From: Myxococcota bacterium
Lineage (GTDB): Bacteria > Myxococcota_A > UBA9042 > PHBI01 > JAWLBL01
NCBI GenBank assembly: GCA_041687695.1
Contig: JAWLBL010000012.1
Location: 200,991-235,924 of the forward strand
DNA: 34,934 nucleotides
Direction: 5' to 3'
In this document: piece after piece, positions 27,091 through 34,934 of the stretch
How the letters are laid out: each line of letters starts with the position of its first letter
How positions within the stretch are numbered: the first letter of the stretch is position 1
Position numbers and translations under genes: made by a program
The notes under the pieces: model-generated
Databases searched by the model: none
Told to the model about the DNA's origin: nothing
Seen by the model: the letters and a program-made list of their open reading frames with translations, nothing else

Positions 27091-28335
27091 ATGACCACCA
27101 CGACCCTGCGCCACCTCGCCCTCACCCTGGTCCTCGGCCTCGTCGCCACCCTGCTGGCCGCGTGCGGCGACGCCGACCCCGCCGCGGGCGACGACAAGAA
27201 CCCGCTCGGCGCCGACGCCGTCGCCACCGACACGGGCTCCGGCGGCGCCGACGCGACCACGCCCGACGACCCCGACGGCACCCACGGCGACGACACCGAC
27301 CCGACCACCGGGCCCGGGGATCCGGACGCGACCGCAGGCCCCGACGGCGCACCAGACCCCGCCCCGGGCTTCCCCGACGACTTCGGCGACGCCTGCACGG
27401 GCGAGGTCGACTGCTCGACCGGCTGGTGCGTCCCCAGCGGCATGGGCTCCATCTGCACGGTCCCGTGCGTCGACGCCTGTCCGACCGGCTGGCAGTGCGT
27501 CAAGGCCTCGGGCAGCACGGTCGACGTGGTCTACCTGTGCGTGCCCCAGCCCGAGCGCCTGTGCCTGCCCTGCCTGACGGACGCGAACTGCGGCGCCGGC
27601 TCTTGCCAGGCCTACCCCGACGGCAACGCCTGCACGATCCTCTGCGACGCCGCGGACCCCTGCCCCGCGGGCTACCTCTGCCAGGAGGTGACCAGCGCCG
27701 CGGACCCCAGCAAGACCTCGACCCAGTGCGTCCCCGAGACCGGCCTGTGCCACGATCCGGGCACCGTCGATCCCACGGACCCGACCGATCCGACCGATCC
27801 CACCGACCCCACCGACCCGACCGATCCGACGGACCCCACGGACCCGACCGACCCGACCGATCCCACCGATCCCACGGATCCGACCGATCCCACGGACCCG
27901 ACCGATCCCACCGATCCCACGGACCCGACCGACCCCACCGATCCCACGGACCCGACCGATCCGACCGATCCCCCGGTGAAGGACTCCGACGGCGACGGCA
28001 TCCCGGACGACGAGGACCTCCTGCCCTGCGTGGCCATCCTGCTCCAGGTGTGGAACCAGGGCGTGACCGCGGCCAGCATCTCGCTCAACGGACAGGTCGC
28101 CATCGCCTCCGGCGCCTTCCCGACCGACCAGGTGATCGAGATGTACGTCAACGCCAAGCCCGGCGAGAACGTGCTCGAGCTGGGTGGCAAGCTGGCGGGC
28201 GCGCCCAAGGACTCGCTGCACTTCCGCATCTCGGACACCTGGGGCAACGTCTACCTCGACGAGATCGTGGTGCGTCAGCCCGGCAACCCCAGCCTCGACG
28301 CGCTGACCTTCACCATCGACGTCTCCTGCGACTGA
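27091..28335 (+). CDS. Cys-rich lipoprotein with (DPT)22 linker and C-terminal beta-rich domain
   Basis: GGAG RBS, lipobox LAAC, Cys-rich block, DPT repeats, DSDGDGIPD Ca-binding-like loop. Confidence 0.88.
   Translation: MTTTTLRHLALTLVLGLVATLLAACGDADPAAGDDKNPLGADAVATDTGSGGADATTPDDPDGTHGDDTDPTTGPGDPDATAGPDGAPDPAPGFPDDFGDACTGEVDCSTGWCVPSGMGSICTVPCVDACPTGWQCVKASGSTVDVVYLCVPQPERLCLPCLTDANCGAGSCQAYPDGNACTILCDAADPCPAGYLCQEVTSAADPSKTSTQCVPETGLCHDPGTVDPTDPTDPTDPTDPTDPTDPTDPTDPTDPTDPTDPTDPTDPTDPTDPTDPTDPTDPTDPTDPTDPTDPPVKDSDGDGIPDDEDLLPCVAILLQVWNQGVTAASISLNGQVAIASGAFPTDQVIEMYVNAKPGENVLELGGKLAGAPKDSLHFRISDTWGNVYLDEIVVRQPGNPSLDALTFTIDVSCD
27769..27966 (+). repeat. 22 x 9-bp tandem repeat GAYCCSACS encoding Asp-Pro-Thr
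   Basis: 198 bp of uninterrupted units that vary only at third codon positions. Confidence 0.95.
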
Positions 28336-28338
28336 CCC

Positions 28339-29163
28339 TCAGCGCGGCGGCCGGCGGAAGCCCGCGGCCCGCGGGTGCCCGCCGCCGCCCAGCCCCTTGG
28401 CGATCTCGCTGACGTCCAGCCCGTCCGGCTGCGACCTCAGCGAGAACGCGCGCTGCCCGTCGGCGGTCTCGTGCCAGACGACCGCGAACGGCTCGCCGAT
28501 GGACAGGCGGTGGCCCAGCTCCGAGACGAACACCGGGCTGTTGACCGCCGGCACGTCGTGACCGGCGATCTCCATGCGCGTGGCCAACCGCAGCAGCCGC
28601 TCGACCTGCCGCTCCTCGAAGCGCAGGATGGCCCGCCCCTCGGGCACCAGATCCTCGGGCCGCGCCTCCTCGGCCAGGCGCGCCCAGGTATCGAGCTCCA
28701 TCGGGAAGGACGCAAGCGCCGCCGAGACCTCGCGGCTGTGCGGCAGCGCCCAGCGCCACAGATCCCGGTCCTCGACGTAGTCGACGATCCACGGCCGCGG
28801 CTTGCCAGGATGCAGCACGTCCCAGGCCAGCCCCGCCCCCGAGCGGTTCATGTCGAAGCGGCAGTACGGCAGGTCGCCCAGCTCGCGCTGCGCCGAGGCG
28901 TGGTGATCGGCCAGCAGCACGCTCCGCGCCGAGGCGGCCAGCGCCTCCATCGTCGGGCGATCGAAGGCGAAGTCGAAGACGTACACGTCGCGCCCGGCGA
29001 CCTCGGGCGGCGCCTCGCCGTGCGTTCGCGGGACCAGCTCGACCGCCGGGTCCCAGCGCCAGGCGGCGAAGGCGGCCCCGAAGCCGTCGCTGCAGCCGGC
29101 GTGGTAGACGACCAGGGGCGGCGGGCCGCTCGGGCGGGCTGTGACGGGCTTGCGCTTGGCCAT
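28339..29163 (-). CDS. DHH/DHHA1 phosphoesterase (NrnB-like)
   Basis: ATG 29163; YHAGCSDG, VFDF, ADHH, RSGA, DRDLW, FSLRS, GGGGHPRAAGF. Confidence 0.92.
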   Translation of the reverse strand: MAKRKPVTARPSGPPPLVVYHAGCSDGFGAAFAAWRWDPAVELVPRTHGEAPPEVAGRDVYVFDFAFDRPTMEALAASARSVLLADHHASAQRELGDLPYCRFDMNRSGAGLAWDVLHPGKPRPWIVDYVEDRDLWRWALPHSREVSAALASFPMELDTWARLAEEARPEDLVPEGRAILRFEERQVERLLRLATRMEIAGHDVPAVNSPVFVSELGHRLSIGEPFAVVWHETADGQRAFSLRSQPDGLDVSEIAKGLGGGGHPRAAGFRRPPR

Positions 29164-29168
29164 GGCGC

Positions 29169-29197
29169 GTCCTACCCGCTGGGGCCGGGGGTGTAAA
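29169..29197 (-). promoter_or_regulatory. Candidate sigma-70 promoter giving a leaderless DHH transcript
   Basis: TTTACA-N17-TAGGAC, then 5 nt to the ATG. No SD motif. Confidence 0.45.
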
Positions 29198-29213
29198 GCG
29201 CCCTCGGTGACCC

Positions 29214-30503
29214 TCAGGCGGCCGCGCGCTCCCACGCCTCGAGGTGACGGACCAGGAAGTCGATGCCGAAGATGTGCTCCGTGGCGTCGCCCTCGCGCCG
29301 GAAGACGACCTCGGACCAGCCCCGCAGGCCCGCCGGCACGTAGCGATCGCCGTCCAGGACCAACGCGTGCCCGCCGATGGCGCGGATGAGCACCCGCTCG
29401 TAACGCGAGCGCGCGACCACCTCGGGCGGGAACAGGTCGTCCCACAGGCACAGGCGGCCGACGTCCTCGTACTCGGGGGGCCGGTCGGGCAGCTCGAGCA
29501 GCGACGGCGTCTCGCCCGTGAAGATGCGGCGCATCAGCCGCAGCGTGAACGGGTCGGCGATGGCCTCGATGGCGGGAGCGAACCGCCGGAAGACGATGGC
29601 GGCCAGCTCGCGCAGGGACAGATGCGTGCGCGACTCTCCGGCCGCGCGGCGCCAGGCGTCCGAGACGCGCCACACCGGGGCGTCGACGTCCTCGGCGAAG
29701 GGGTTGCGCGGGTAGGACTCGGTGTTGGCGACCCAGCCGGTGCGCGAGCTGTGGGGTCTGGGCGAGAAGCCCTCGACGGTCGGCAGGCCCTCGGTGGCGA
29801 GGCGGGCGACGTCGTAGGCGGGCCAGCGGATGACCTCGCGGACGAGGCCGGTGATGAGCGTGGCCGTGGCGATCATCAGAGCCGGGCTGGGGGTGAAGTC
29901 GACGGTGACCTCGACCCGGCGCGGGCGCGGCCGGACGCCGACGCCGGTCGAGCGGCGGTTGGTCGCCAGCAGCATCACGGGCGCCGGCAGGACGTGGACC
30001 AGCAGCCAGGCAATGCGCTCGACGGTGCGCGCGCGGTCGCCCGACGGCACGTCGAAGGCGACGTTGTAGTGGGTGCTGAAGCCGACCAGGCGGGCGTCGT
30101 GGCCCTGGGCCTGCTCCCAGGCGTCCAGATCCTGGCGCACCTGGTGCATCGCCTGCCACAGCGAGCGGCCGGCGCGAGCGGCGCAGCCCGGGGCGATCTC
30201 GATGACCGGCGTCGCCACCTCGATGCCGCCCTTGTCGAAGTAGACGGCGGGCCCGCTGGGCAGGTGGTAGCTGGTGCCCGTGCGGTGCACCAGGTCTCCG
30301 CGCAGGAAGGCGCGCGGGTCGCCGAAGACGTGCTCGGGCCAGCGGCGCTGCCCGTCCAGGTACAGCTCGACCTCGGCCTCGAGGCCGATGACCGGCTCGG
30401 CGAGCGGGCCCTCGGCCGCCTCGGCGATGACGCCGCCCTTGGTCAGCGGCGCGCCCTTGTTGCCGGTCTCTCGCTCGCCCTTGGCCTTGCGCTCGTCGCT
30501 CAT
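29214..30503 (-). CDS. PafA/Dop-like (glutamine-synthetase-fold) carboxylate-amine ligase homologue
   Basis: IGLEAE resembles GhEx[20 protein letters not shown] resembles LxNGARLYxDxx[15 protein letters not shown] resembles GCHENY; RRVEV. Start is ATG 30503 or GTG 30509, which overlaps the upstream stop. Confidence 0.7.
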
Positions 30504-30505
30504 GC

Positions 30506-31108
30506 TCACGCGTCCTCTTCGCCCGGGGCCCCGCGCGGGACCAGCGTGACGTACCCGAGATCGAGGTGCAGGTGGTCGTCCGTGCAGCCGACGACGTGAC
30601 CGTAAGGACGCGTGAAGACGCCCGGAAGGACCTGCCGGGCGATGGCGCGGTAGCGCTCGAGGGTGTCGGCGTCGTGCAGGCGGTCGCGGCCGATGCGGTA
30701 GACGTTGGCGGCCGTGCCCCAGTGGTGCGTCGAGGCGTAGTGGCTGCTGGCGTGGCCGGGGGACCGGTAGCCGCCGTTGGCCGCGATGTGGACCAGGGCG
30801 CCGACCCGCTGGCGGAAGACGGCCAGGTGCGCCGCGAGCAGGGTGACCGCGCAGGGGACGTAGCGGGGCCAGCCGCGCAGGACCTCGGCGGCGCGCACGT
30901 CGGTCTGGATGAACTCCCACAGGTGGAACCCCGGCGCGAGGGCGGTCGCGTGGGCCTGCTCCCAGCTGTCGACGCGGTAGAAGTAGACCGGCAGGCGGCG
31001 GCCGCGGCCCTCCTCGTCCGGCAGGACCTCGCCGGGGCGCATGGCGGCGCGATAGGCGGCGGGCAGCGCCCGCGCGTCGACGATGGGCAGGTCCAGGCCC
31101 TGGGTCAT
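30506..31108 (-). CDS. Peptidase M15A-like (LAS/DD-peptidase fold) protein
   Basis: [23 protein letters not shown] and HLHLD motifs. No signal peptide. Confidence 0.8.
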
Positions 31109-31128
31109 GGTCGGGCTCCACCGAGGAT

Positions 31129-31366
31129 GGCTGTAGTGGATAATGGGATTTGTCGGATCCGAGCCGAGGTTGGAGCAGATCCGGTTCCGGGAGACCGAGG
31201 TGAACCGGGCGGTTCACCGGCTCCCTTCGGTCGCCGGTTCTTCTGGCCCTGTGGGCCAGCACGGCCGCGCTTCGCACGGCCGCAGCGTCTCCCGGGGCCG
31301 GAGCTGCCCAACACGAAGCGGGGCTCGGGGCCGCCGGCCCCGTGAATCAGCTTATTCACTACAGCC
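31129..31366. mobile_element. 238-bp MITE-like non-autonomous element
   Basis: 15-bp terminal inverted repeats GGCTGTAGTG(G/A)ATAA at 31129-31143 and 31352-31366, with internal hairpins. Excision restores the host gene's frame. Confidence 0.8.
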
Positions 31367-32194
31367 TCCAAGGTGGCGGTGGACGACGGCCGCGAGGTCG
31401 GCGACGGCCTGACGGCGCAGGCTGGGCGAGACGCCGCGGGGCCACTCGGTCAGGACGGCCAGCGCGTAGGGGGCGCGCCCGGGCAGGTAGACCAGGCCGG
31501 CGTCGTGGGTGACGGTCGAGATCTCGCCGGTCTTGTGGGCGACCCGCGCCCGCTCGCGGACGGCCTCGGGCAGGCCGGCGGGGATGCCGCTGCGGAAGGC
31601 CTGCTGGAACAGAACCTCGAGCATCTTGGCGCAGGCGCGCGGCGAGACGGCGCGGCCGTCGTGCAGGGCGCGGTAGAAGCCGACCAGGCCGCGGGCGGTG
31701 ACGCGGTTGGACAGGCCGGCCTCGAAGGCCTTGTCGTCCTCGACGCCCCGCAGGATCTCGAGGCCCGCCAGGCCGGCGCGGGCGGGCGCGCCGCGGGCGG
31801 CCTCGGCGCCGACCAGATCGAAGAGCACGTTGGTGGCGAGGTTGCTGCTGGTCACGATCATGTGGTGGACCAGCTCGCCGACCGGCATCGTCTTGCCGAT
31901 GGCCGCGTGGACCGCGTCGTTGGCGTCGGTCGCGGCCGAGACGCGGTAGGGCGAGCCGTCGGCGACGCTGATGAAGCGATTGCGGACGTGGACCGGCGCG
32001 TCCAGCGTCAGCCGCCCGGCCTCGACGGCCTCGAAGATGGGCAGCATCAGCGGCGCCTTGTAGGTGCTGGCCGCGTGGAACCAGCGGTCGCCGTCGAGCG
32101 CGTCCGCCTCGCCTCGCTCGAGGTCGTCCCACGCGACGCCCGCCGCCAGCGCTCCGGCGGCCGACGCCACGGCTCGCAGCTCGTCGTGGACCAT
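31352..32194 (-). CDS. Class A beta-lactamase-like serine hydrolase (cytoplasmic)
   Basis: GGAGG RBS, ATG 32194; SxxK (ASTYK), SxN (SSN), KTG (HKTG), HDAG. No signal peptide. The stop codon lies inside the MITE terminal repeat. Confidence 0.92.
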   Translation of the reverse strand: MVHDELRAVASAAGALAAGVAWDDLERGEADALDGDRWFHAASTYKAPLMLPIFEAVEAGRLTLDAPVHVRNRFISVADGSPYRVSAATDANDAVHAAIGKTMPVGELVHHMIVTSSNLATNVLFDLVGAEAARGAPARAGLAGLEILRGVEDDKAFEAGLSNRVTARGLVGFYRALHDGRAVSPRACAKMLEVLFQQAFRSGIPAGLPEAVRERARVAHKTGEISTVTHDAGLVYLPGRAPYALAVLTEWPRGVSPSLRRQAVADLAAVVHRHLGGCSE

Positions 32195-32259
32195 CGCACC
32201 TCCCTCGAGGCCGTCCCTAAGCCCCGTCTTGGCGTTCGGCAAACCCCGCGCCCGCCGGT

Positions 32260-32309
32260 CGCGTTCCCGAACGCGCATCGTTGACCGGCGGGGTGGCCGG
32301 GCGCACATT
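32260..32309 (+). promoter_or_regulatory. Palindrome plus candidate sigma-70 promoter in a divergent intergenic region
   Basis: CGCGTTC-CC-GAACGCG (32260-32275) lies just upstream of TTGACC-N17-CACATT (32281-32309). Confidence 0.4.
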
Positions 32310-32353
32310 CGGCCCGCGCGTCCCCTCACCTCCCGCTTCGGAGCCACCGCCGC

Positions 32354-33031
32354 ATGGCCGAAAAGCACGCCCCCTCGCTGAGCGTCGACATCCGCGACAT
32401 GGAGATAGACGACCTCGCGCCGGTCTATCACCTGGGCGAGGCGCTCTTCACGAGCGAGAAGTACCCGTTCCTGTACCGCACCTGGGAGCCCTGGGAGGTC
32501 GTCGGCCTGTTCCACACCGACAGCGACTACTGCCTGGTCGCCGAGGTGGGCGACGATCTGGCCGGCTTCGTGCTGGGGACGGTCATCTCGAAGGCGTCCT
32601 GGACCTACGGCTACATCATCTGGCTGGGCGTGAGCCCCGGCTTCCAAAAGCGCGGCGTCGCCGACCGGCTGGTGGACAAGCTGGTCGAGAGGATGATCGA
32701 CGACGGCGCGCGCTTCATGCTGGTCGACACCGATCCGCGCAACACGCCGGCGGTGAAGTTCTTCACCCGCAAGGGCTTCGGCTCGCAGCGCGACCACGTG
32801 TTCCTGTCGATGAACCTGGTCAAGCACGAGCGGTACGGCAAGATCATCCACCGCGAGCGCGAGCGCGAGCGCACCGAGAAGGAGGTGCGGCGCAAGACGA
32901 GGCAGGCGCGGCTGGCGGCATCTTTGGCGGCCAAGGAGCGGCCGGCGACGGCGACGGGGCCGGAGGCTGGCGTGGAGCTGGGCAGCGGCGGGCTCGTCCC
33001 CGGCGGCGGCGAGGGCGAGCGGTCGGAGTAG
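32354..33031 (+). CDS. GNAT-family N-acetyltransferase
   Basis: GGAG RBS; LGVSPGFQKRGVA acetyl-CoA motif; NTPAVKFFTRKGF; charged C-terminal helix. Confidence 0.93.
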   Translation: MAEKHAPSLSVDIRDMEIDDLAPVYHLGEALFTSEKYPFLYRTWEPWEVVGLFHTDSDYCLVAEVGDDLAGFVLGTVISKASWTYGYIIWLGVSPGFQKRGVADRLVDKLVERMIDDGARFMLVDTDPRNTPAVKFFTRKGFGSQRDHVFLSMNLVKHERYGKIIHRERERERTEKEVRRKTRQARLAASLAAKERPATATGPEAGVELGSGGLVPGGGEGERSE

Positions 33032-33198: not shown

Positions 33199-34656
33199 TT
33201 GAGGATCCCCAAGCGTTTGCAGCCGCTCATCGACGAGGGGCTCGTCGACGAGGTCGTGCGTCCCGTGACCAGCGGCAAGGAGGCCGAGGTCTACATCGTC
33301 TGGTCGGGCGGCAAGCTGCGCGCGGCCAAGGTGTACAAGGAGGCCGAAAAGCGCAGCTTCAAGAACCGCGCGGACTACCTGGACGGGCGCGGCTCGCGGG
33401 GGACGCGCGGCGAGCGGGCGCAAAAGCGCGGCGGGCGCTTCGCCAAGGAGCAGGAGGAGTCGGCCTGGTACGAGGCCGAGGTGCTGGCGCTCGAGAAGCT
33501 GAGCGCGGCGGGGGTCCGGGTGCCCAAGCCGCGTGGGTTCCTGGACGGCGTCCTGCTGATGGATCTGCTGCTGGACATGGAGGGCGAGCCCGCGCCGCGC
33601 CTGGCGGACTGCGACTTCGAGGAGGACGAGGCGCGCGAGCTGTTCGGGTGGGTCATCGTCGAGGTGCAGCGGATGCTGTGCGCCGGCGTCGTGCACGGCG
33701 ATCTCAGCGAATACAACATCCTGCTGGCGGTCGACGGGCCGGTCATCATCGATCTGCCGCAGATGGTGAACGCGGCGGCGTCGCAGGTGGCGCGCAAGCT
33801 GCTGGTGCGCGACGTGGCGAACGTGCGGGCCTTCCTGGGGCGCTTCGCGCCGGATCTGGAGGCGACGCGCTACGCCGAGGAGATGTGGCGGCTGTGGGAG
33901 CGGGCCGCGCTGACGCCCGACACCGCGCTGACCGGGCGCTTCCACGAGGCGCGCGGGCCGGTCGACACCCGCCGCGTGCAGCAGGCCATCGGCGAGGCCG
34001 AGCGCGAGCGCGAGCGCGAGCTGCTGCGCCAGGGCGGCGGCACGGGCGGCGGGCGACGCAAGCGACGCGGCGGCGGCGGCCCGAGCCCCCAGGCGCAGGA
34101 CGCCGGGCAAGCCCGCGATCGCGGCAGCGAAGAGCGCGAGATGACCTACGACCTCCCCCCGCAGGGACGCCGCGAGCGCCCGCGTGACGAGGGACCGCGC
34201 CACCCGCAGGGCCCCCCGCCCCGACGCGACGACCGGCCGCGCGACGAGCGGCCGCGCGACGACCGGCCCCGCAACGACCAGCGGCCCCCGCCCCGGCGCG
34301 ACGACCGGCCGCGAGACGACCGACCGCGGGACGAGCGCCCCCGCAACGACCAGCGGCCCCCGCCCCGGCGCGACGAGCGGCCGCGGGACGACCGACCGCG
34401 CAACGACCAGCGGCCCCCGCCCCGACGCGACGACCGACCGCGCGACGAGCGGCCGCGCGACGACCGGCCCCGCAACCAGCAGGGCCCTCCCCCCCGGCGG
34501 GACGAGCGACCGCGCGACGAGCGGCCCCGCGACGAGCAGCGGCCCCCGCGCAGGGACGAGCGGCCCCCGCCCCGGCGGGACGATCGCCCGCGCCGCGACG
34601 ACGAGCGCCCACCCCGCGACGAGCGACCCCAGCGACAGCGTCAGCGCAACGGCTGA
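33199..34656 (+). CDS. RIO1-like atypical protein kinase with Arg/Asp/Pro repeat tail
   Basis: GAGGAG then TTG; SGKEAEVY, AKVYK, VRVPKP, VHGDLSEYNIL, IIDLPQ, RDVAN. Confidence 0.93.
   Translation: MRIPKRLQPLIDEGLVDEVVRPVTSGKEAEVYIVWSGGKLRAAKVYKEAEKRSFKNRADYLDGRGSRGTRGERAQKRGGRFAKEQEESAWYEAEVLALEKLSAAGVRVPKPRGFLDGVLLMDLLLDMEGEPAPRLADCDFEEDEARELFGWVIVEVQRMLCAGVVHGDLSEYNILLAVDGPVIIDLPQMVNAAASQVARKLLVRDVANVRAFLGRFAPDLEATRYAEEMWRLWERAALTPDTALTGRFHEARGPVDTRRVQQAIGEAERERERELLRQGGGTGGGRRKRRGGGGPSPQAQDAGQARDRGSEEREMTYDLPPQGRRERPRDEGPRHPQGPPPRRDDRPRDERPRDDRPRNDQRPPPRRDDRPRDDRPRDERPRNDQRPPPRRDERPRDDRPRNDQRPPPRRDDRPRDERPRDDRPRNQQGPPPRRDERPRDERPRDEQRPPRRDERPPPRRDDRPRRDDERPPRDERPQRQRQRNG
34212..34630 (+). 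repeat. Nested coding repeat of 15-bp RD[DE]RP units in PPPR...NDQR blocks
   Basis: About five higher-order blocks of 19-24 aa are visible in DNA and protein. Confidence 0.9.
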
Positions 34657-34746
34657 GGCCCCGCTCGCTCGGCTCCGAAGCCAGGACCCGCTCGCCGGCT
34701 TACCCACCAACCCGGGCCGGCTGGAAGAGAGGGTCGAAACAGGCCA

Positions 34747-34934
34747 ACCGGAGTGCTCCACCTTGGTGGAGCCCCCATCCGGCGCAGCTTGCTGCGCCAG
34801 GTTCGGCGGCCAGATCCCGGCGGCAAGCCGCCGGGGCCGGGGCTCCAGCAAGCTGGAGCACTCCAGGGGCGCTCCAGCTTGCTGGACCTACCGGAGTGCT
34901 CCACCTTGGTGGAGCCCCCATCCGGCGCAGCTTG
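34747..34934. repeat. REP/REPIN-like palindrome array (truncated by window end)
   Basis: 45-bp exact direct repeat (34747-34791, 34890-34934). The unit GGAGTGCTCCA(C/G)CTTG(G/C)TGGAGCCCC occurs at 34750 (+), 34839-34864 (-) and 34893 (+), with a degenerate copy at 34866. Extra hairpins at 34781-34798 and 34816-34835. Confidence 0.85.

Follow-up and report, generated by a model that had tools for sequence, protein, structure and literature searches.

The 34,934-nucleotide stretch of a Myxococcota bacterium analysed here (contig JAWLBL010000012.1 of assembly GCA_041687695.1; hereafter the window) carries a cassette of three genes on its minus strand. The first gene (31352..32194, minus strand) encodes a 280-aa serine hydrolase resembling PBP-A and class A beta-lactamases, as judged from its open reading frame (ORF), Pfam and PDB alignment. 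The second (30506..31108, minus strand) encodes a 200-aa protein resembling zinc peptidases of the M15A/LAS fold. The third (29214..30503, minus strand) encodes a protein of 429 aa, counted from its ATG, with a predicted carboxylate-amine ligase fold related to PafA and Dop (hereafter the ligase). Both latter assignments came from the ORF, a predicted model and alignment. The initial annotation had described three co-oriented genes without signal peptides. Three minus-strand ORFs were indeed found, and no signal peptide was seen by alignment and hydropathy. The GTGA overlap that it placed between the M15-like gene and the ligase is also present, since the ligase has an alternative in-frame GTG start at 30509 that overlaps the M15-like stop. 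No sigma-70 promoter or terminator pattern was found in positions 28200-32500 of the window. The host genome holds a single copy of each cassette gene, and the GC content at third codon positions (GC3) of the cassette was like that of the neighbouring genes.

The ligase carries the three motifs first noticed in it, G40-x-E42-x-E44, Y88-x-D90...E95-x-A-T98-P99 and H145-x-N147, which were near-invariant in 146 aligned relatives. Its relatives form at least 3,525 sequence clusters. No Pfam or NCBIfam family matched the ligase, and none of 24 members matched a ligase family, PF03136 (Pup_ligase) included (0/24); there was no match of the ligase to PF04107 (GCS2/YbdK), and its sequence matched nothing in the PDB. 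The AlphaFold model, built from 146 sequences, had a predicted local distance difference test score (pLDDT) of 91.6. The best Foldseek match of this model was PafA (4bjr, E 8.5e-8). VIA alignment gave Z 18.9 for Dop (root-mean-square deviation (rmsd) 3.2, 278 residues aligned), 18.1 for PafA (rmsd 4.3, 335 aligned) and 18.0 for YbdK (rmsd 3.6, 259 aligned), so that YbdK is tied with Dop and PafA. Only the PafA match covered the C-terminal domain, running over model residues 36-429 to chain residue 471, whereas the YbdK match stopped at residue 353. This extra domain is modelled as a small beta-barrel (about residues 365-428) with a conserved arginine (R365, 139/141) and tryptophan (W396, 137/138). 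In PMC12053664, the domain is described as unique to PafA and Dop and as supplying the nucleotide pocket with R418 and W440. Judging from motif order, R365 and W396 are probably the equivalents of these two residues. The PafA/Dop-like fold proposed for 29214-30503 was therefore supported by the predicted model, and also by a profile match to PafA/Dop (probability 80%, E 1.4e-5, range 72-80%) that covered the N-terminal 58 columns only. The same comparison (hhalign) with GCS2 gave a probability of 1.6%.

The carboxylate-amine ligase superfamily (GS/GCS fold) is characterized (PMC2588565) by a six-strand cradle, GhExE, acidic side chains on strands 2 and 3, an HxN motif on strand 4 and arginines close to strand 5. 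These features are all found in the predicted model and the near-invariant residues of the ligase. Within the superfamily, the ligase shares with PafA and Dop (PF03136; 4bjr, 4b0r, 7oyh, 9cku) the predicted fold, GhExE, YxD-x4-E-xATP, HxN, the small C-terminal domain with its Arg and Trp, and an Arg two residues before the strand-6 ligand with none two after. Identity to them is only 11-13%, and the ligase has Glu on strand 6 where they have His. Strand 6 reads R-x-E-x-T-x-D, which is intermediate between the PafA and GCS patterns: neither the [QH]x4D motif of PafA/Dop nor the Ex[RK]x2D motif of GCS2 is there (E198-x-T200, with Thr at the position of the ExR arginine). The core fold is common to GCS2/YbdK and the plant glutamate-cysteine ligases (PF04107; 1tt4, 1r8g, 2gwc; Z 18.0 and 16.3), and an RPR-x-x-x-x-E segment resembles that of GCS2. 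The host has GCS2 genes of its own besides. The ExE-to-YxD spacing was 44 in 131 of 132 scorable rows, equal to the PafA type, versus 75 in Dop-type loci; the Dop loop before strand 2 is absent. The ligase has 50-55 residues from HxN to strand 6 versus 81-94 in PafA/Dop, and its alpha-loop region is shorter by about 30 residues. In PafA, this region serves protein targets (PMC7947786). On these sequence and model features, we read the ligase as a sister of PafA/Dop and not as a member. In six Acidobacteriota ligases (L072, L075-L078, L081), a long Arg/Pro-rich insert of low complexity precedes the C-terminal domain.

The hydrolase has the SxxK, SxN and KTG motifs that had been assigned to it (S43-x-x-K46, S116-S-N118, K221-T-G). 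It matched Pfam Beta-lactamase2 (E 5e-46), and scored 86 bits against the curated NCBIfam model for class A beta-lactamases, whose cut-off is 200. Its best PDB sequence match was PBP-A (E 6e-20, residues 6-253). From residue 6 onwards, the hydrolase aligns with the core of mature PBP-A, and GGAGG lies just 5' of its ATG. When 51 rows of the family were screened crudely for hydropathy, the top score (2.17) belonged to another paralogue, 44% identical and found in L030, and the Ala-rich start of the window's protein came second (1.76); neither this screen nor the alignment revealed a signal peptide in the hydrolase. Glu152 lies at the position equivalent to Ambler 166 and is present in 50 of 51 rows, and all 51 rows have Ala at the Asn170 equivalent. 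The class A set of SxxK, SxN, KTG and Glu166 is thus complete, and Asn170 is missing. The Ambler positions were assigned by counting onwards from the serine of SxN. The three motifs are shared between the hydrolase and PBP-A of Thermosynechococcus elongatus (Tll2115; 2j7v, 2j9o). In the Glu152 column, Leu is found in 2j7v and Glu in 2j9o, which we take to be the engineered L158E variant. The discriminating Glu96 of PBP-A aligns with Ala78, the neighbour of Asp79 (present in 42/51 rows). According to PMC11189452, PBP-A is a DD-carboxy/endopeptidase with a strong preference for stems with D-isoglutamine (amidated), is anchored to the membrane outside the cytoplasm and has no omega-loop Glu. By comparison, the hydrolase has no anchor and carries a Glu at that column.

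The second protein had been called an M15-like peptidase. Its LAS fold stood, and a canonical zinc site did not. The model (pLDDT 92.9) aligned by VIA with 1lbu, the M15A zinc D-Ala-D-Ala peptidase of Streptomyces albus G (Z 9.0, rmsd 3.0, 109 aligned), and the top seven rows were all LAS-fold proteins. Foldseek gave nothing at E 0.001 or better, the best rows being Hedgehog and Ply500. Peptidase_M15_3 was matched by 58 of 119 family members with E values of 1 or lower, 6.4e-4 being the best, the window's own protein had no M15 Pfam hit, and the family profile gave two chance hits only against the PDB. Its Atlas neighbours were named M15A/MepK. The LAS fold, GYRSP, SxH and HxHxD are shared with the Streptomyces enzyme and MepK-like proteins. 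R115, H128-x6-N135 and H179-x-H181-x-D183 were invariant or nearly so. In M15 peptidases the zinc ligands are His-x6-Asp...His. In the cassette family the second ligand position (H128-x6-N135...H181) is occupied by Asn instead of the usual Asp in 119 of 119 rows. Further differences are an extra N-terminal 55 residues, and the lack of a signal peptide or wall-binding domain in the cassette protein. Judging from these residues, the protein may bind metal differently, or may bind substrate without cutting it.

A neighbourhood survey was made of the trio, which had been expected to be conserved across taxa. The trio was intact, with its order kept, at 35 of 40 GTDB loci from four phyla (Gemmatimonadota, Acidobacteriota, Rhodothermota and Pseudomonadota). 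Two of the other five loci were cut by contig ends and three were lone ligases, whose genomes hold a hydrolase-M15 pair elsewhere, in one case as a full trio. In two Acidobacteriota genomes (L001/L158 and L026/L159), the ligase stood apart from the pair, which was on another contig. The ligase was carried by 11 of 251 Gemmatimonadota and 8 of 251 Acidobacteriota genomes, and all 19 carriers have the trio. The M15-like family occurred in exactly the 11 Gemmatimonadota carriers. The cassette was not found in 300 further genomes from the phylum of the host. The initial annotation had suggested the nearby GNAT and DHH genes as accessories; this was not borne out, as GNAT, DHH and RIO1 genes stood beside the trio at none of the 40 loci. 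Neighbourhood clustering revealed no general fourth gene. Five Acidobacteriota genomes (L073, L074, L080, L082, L025) have an additional ligase copy that stands alone and keeps its catalytic residues. Four of the additional copies fall within a single, well-supported clade; an Xaa-Pro dipeptidase gene is the neighbour of two, and one comes after an ATP-grasp gene. The tree was a quick IQ-TREE run with six rows left out, five of them the betaproteobacterial loci and one a fragment. The window's ligase copy was unplaced in it, so no donor is claimed. In two cultured Ramlibacter genomes (L036, L037), frame breaks were seen in the hydrolase and/or the ligase, which may reflect sequencing error or decay.

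PafA and Dop normally serve the Pup-proteasome system, and genes for Pup or the proteasome had not been noticed in the window. The genome agreed: the host assembly (completeness 99.3%) had no match to PF03136 and no 20S proteasome, HslV being its sole PF00227 hit. PF03136 was also absent from 21 of 21 carrier genomes. Short Pup-like ORFs ending in GG[EQ] were searched in 61 stretches (780 kb), and only two Arg-rich spurious matches appeared. The same scan recovered Pup-like ORFs at 9 of 15 PafA/Dop control loci. Unlike PafA/Dop, then, the ligase is accompanied by no Pup, ARC/Mpa or 20S genes and is tied to two peptidase folds and mpl. The M15-like protein was considered as a Pup-like modifier and rejected, its tails being variable and without a conserved terminal Glu or Gln. 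Mutual exclusion of PafA/Dop and the cassette was also dropped: they occur in 7 and 11 of the 251 Gemmatimonadota-sample genomes without overlap, and chance would give the same. In those seven genomes (L099-L118), PafA/Dop pairs occur with Pup- or UBact-like ORFs, and one has five clustered ligase-family matches. According to the initial annotation, its idea would fall if the PafA fold were not matched, the trio were not conserved or a canonical PafA/Dop protein served a Pup locus elsewhere in the genome; none of the three was observed.

The distribution of mpl gave the strongest genomic pointer to function. The gene was found in 27 of the 251 Gemmatimonadota genomes (22 above the cut-off), including all 11 carriers (Fisher p 2.6e-12), three of whose hits were partial or below the cut-off. 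It lay beside the trio in 7 of these 11 carriers. The three non-centre carriers with mpl on another contig gave p 4e-4 alone. In Acidobacteriota, mpl was present in 6 of 6 carriers versus 74 of 151 genomes (p 0.012); an unpublished genome, G594, is counted here and left the result unchanged. Overall, 37 of 38 ligase-holding genomes had an mpl-like hit, 28 of them above the curated cut-off. At 10 loci mpl adjoined the trio or was one gene away: it was downstream and convergent at eight and upstream and divergent at two, one with ldcA between. At L038, ldcA-mpl is divergent from the trio. In the Gemmatimonadota genomes with mpl and no trio, mpl lay within about 2 kb of ldcA in 9 of 16. Co-occurrence with Mpl-dependent recycling, as expected of an accessory, was thus observed, among genomes that are related. 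Other neighbours were local: dap genes upstream and SLT and RlpA lytic transglycosylase genes downstream at four related Acidobacteriota loci, a peptide ABC transporter upstream at four related Gemmatimonadota loci, and Xaa-Pro dipeptidase, S9 and S51 peptidase genes near some loci. At one locus of a Rhodothermales metagenome-assembled genome (MAG) (L028:9674-15745), the trio abuts a cyanophycin synthetase and a cyanophycinase-like gene. It had been listed as mpl-adjacent and was dropped, as its Mur-like genes are of the cyanophycin synthetase type.

The host has mpl-like, ampG, amidase-2, S66 and murE genes, all unlinked to the cassette. Its mpl-like gene scored 384.6 bits (cut-off 388.7) versus 278.5 with the MurC model. 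For murT, no match was found in the host, and MurT was not found in 5 of 5 carriers. The trio shares with the AmpG-AmpD-LdcA-Mpl recycling pathway its co-occurrence with mpl, which it often adjoins. It does not replace LdcA or MurE: LdcA is kept in 32 of 36 carriers, being missing only from 4 Blastocatellia MAGs, and MurE in 5 of 5, so both replacements were rejected. In the literature searched (titles and the beginnings of abstracts, with subscription papers mostly outside), no glutamine-synthetase-fold enzyme was described in this pathway, and no description of the ligase family or of such a pathway was found. Iyer 2009, reportedly a survey of ligase gene neighbourhoods, could mention the family.

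Taken together, the cassette is real, uncatalogued and conserved, and is built of known folds, and the genomic pointer to cell-wall recycling is strong. We consider it probable that the cassette works on peptidoglycan peptides upstream of Mpl. The initial annotation had proposed a cytoplasmic module that adds and removes amide or isopeptide links on a small peptide, a wall precursor or a protein. A cytoplasmic amide-bond module is likely; the evidence on its substrate favours peptidoglycan-derived peptides and Mpl over a protein tag. Mpl itself is selective. According to PMC3060825, its rates per minute are 260 for the tripeptide, 5.9 for the tetrapeptide, 5.3 for the pentapeptide, 1.4 for L-Ala-D-Glu and 0.25 for the Lys tripeptide. 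This is a preference for the meso-diaminopimelate (mDAP) tripeptide of about 45-fold over tetra- and pentapeptides, about 190-fold over L-Ala-D-Glu and about 1,000-fold over the Lys tripeptide (PMC3060825).

Our proposal, which we hold tentatively, is cytoplasmic editing of stem peptides: the peptidases would trim them, and the PafA-like enzyme would make or exchange the gamma-D-Glu-mDAP bond of the tripeptide for Mpl. Wall fragments would enter through AmpG or Opp, and an amidase would then release stem peptides. The PBP-A-like serine enzyme would remove D-Ala5 or cleave 4-3 cross-links, and the M15A-like protein would trim or bind another stem bond. The PafA-like enzyme with ATP would phosphorylate the gamma-carboxyl of a C-terminal D-Glu, such as that of L-Ala-D-Glu, and couple it to mDAP; alternatively, the same acyl-phosphate could serve to swap a foreign third residue for mDAP. 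Mpl would finally join the tripeptide to UDP-MurNAc. Converting poor substrates to the tripeptide would be useful only with Mpl, which matches the co-occurrence pattern. PafA activates a peptide at the gamma-carboxyl of its terminal Glu (PMC2588565). This group is also offered by L-Ala-D-Glu, so bond formation or exchange by the ligase is favoured. PafA can also move Glu between amines (PMC5358908).

Several points weigh against stem-peptide editing. PafA and Dop act on L-Glu, and the use of D-Glu by the ligase is an assumption made by analogy. Just past the catalytic Asp, the ligase combines PafA-like with Dop-like features, and its sequence does not tell in which direction the reaction runs. 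The zinc site of the M15-like protein is non-canonical, and the protein may be inactive. Similarity of the hydrolase to PBP-A is weak by sequence (E 6e-20), and it has a Glu that PBP-A lacks. The genomes are kin, so the p values for mpl overstate significance. In 7 of the 11 Gemmatimonadota carriers mpl is physically linked, and all 10 adjacent loci are from that phylum. No trio is present in 16 of the 27 mpl genomes, and the host's mpl is on another contig and just below the cut-off. Tripeptide trimming is already covered by LdcA in most carriers. De novo synthesis can do without the cassette, since the 5 carriers out of 5 keep MurE. Finally, the second ligase copies in five genomes stand without peptidases.

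Other readings of the same genes were weighed. The PafA/Dop-like enzyme might instead amidate or deamidate the stem peptide with gain or loss of ammonia, for example by deamidating D-isoglutamine or amidated mDAP in peptides scavenged from other bacteria, while the peptidases trim amidated peptides. This would fit the mpl link equally well and would suit the taste of PBP-A for D-isoglutamine peptides (PMC11189452). Dop is a deamidase (PMC8599861). As MurT was not found in 5 of 5 carriers, MurT probably does not amidate the stems that they make themselves. We nevertheless think this reading rather unlikely, because the D-isoglutamine amide is on the alpha-carboxyl whereas the PafA/Dop fold acts on gamma-carboxyls, and the ligase lacks the Dop loop.

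The same residues with which Dop hydrolyses gamma-glutamyl amides (PMC8599861) could also hydrolyse the gamma-D-Glu-mDAP bond in a catabolic module, by which wall peptides would be eaten and not reused. The Xaa-Pro dipeptidase, S9 and S51 genes near some loci are in line with this. Yet Mpl needs the intact tripeptide and the co-occurrence with mpl is strict, the trio has no further conserved neighbour, and the ExE-to-YxD spacing is of the PafA type; we regard catabolism as improbable. A slim chance is left for Pup-independent protein tagging, in which a small peptide or amino acid would be ligated to protein lysines and the tag processed or removed by the two peptidase folds. The nearest profile and fold relatives of the ligase are PafA and Dop, C-terminal domain included. 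Against this stand the lack of Pup-like ORFs in the 61 stretches when the control loci yielded them (9/15), the M15-like tails without a conserved terminal Glu or Gln, the missing fourth conserved gene and the shortened alpha-loop region, and the mpl link would go unexplained. In a last reading, the trio would detoxify or make a small compound of the D-amino-acid or beta-lactam kind, with a cytoplasmic beta-lactamase-like hydrolase whose product is gamma-glutamylated by the ligase. This reading could draw on Glu152 at the deacylation-base position (50/51 rows) and is very improbable given the 86 bits against a cut-off of 200, Ala at the Asn170 equivalent (51/51), the lack of an export signal, the absence of any conserved transporter, regulator or biosynthetic gene nearby, and an mpl link left unexplained.

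If stem-peptide editing by the cassette is right, the ligase could possibly represent a third branch beside PafA and Dop, a small-peptide enzyme that builds or swaps a gamma-D-Glu-diamino-acid bond without a Mur ligase, although we hold this broader claim as doubtful. Soil bacteria could then convert foreign or over-trimmed wall peptides to their own mDAP tripeptide for Mpl, and the family would offer a living model of a peptide ligase ancestral to pupylation. PafA and Dop have been described as the sole enzymes with their C-terminal domain, acting on Pup only, and the ligase family shares this architecture without Pup. Should the ligase act on stem peptides, it would be a new enzyme class in the peptidoglycan recycling of abundant soil phyla and would bear on the origin of pupylation.

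In the window, the hydrolase and the M15-like gene are separated by a 245-bp miniature inverted-repeat transposable element (MITE) with terminal inverted repeats (31125..31369, no strand assigned). It is one of 13 copies in the host genome with both ends paired (166-245 bp). The 2-bp flanks are TA/TA in six copies, GA/GA in two and GA/AA at the cassette copy. The last five codons and the stop of the hydrolase are derived from the MITE. When the element and one 2-bp flank were removed in a by-hand reading, the frame stayed open for a few more codons and its stop overlapped the M15 start as ATGA, as the initial annotation had foreseen. In the relatives, the hydrolase stop and M15 start overlap by 1, 4 or 8 nt at 25 of 34 loci, which agrees with this reconstruction. 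The MITE is a host-specific insertion outside the conserved cassette.

The window's proteins were also compared with the 90%-conserved columns of their families, whose rows are mostly from phyla other than the host's. The ligase departs at 10 of 141 columns (10% of 131 rows depart at as many or more), the M15-like protein at 5 of 67 (2% of 118 rows) and the hydrolase at 6 of 76 (6% of 48 rows). The catalytic residues are intact despite these departures. Together with the MITE, they may reflect drift or relaxed selection after transfer. Elsewhere in the window, the plus-strand gene at 27091-28335 probably encodes a lipoprotein; its product contains Cys-rich repeats and a long tandem tract of Asp-Pro-Thr and has no Pfam match. 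The plus-strand gene at 33199-34656 encodes a RIO1-like kinase of the PA4780 family with a long Arg/Asp/Pro repeat tail, and the end of the window (about 34690-34934) consists of non-coding repeated blocks of about 60-130 bp.

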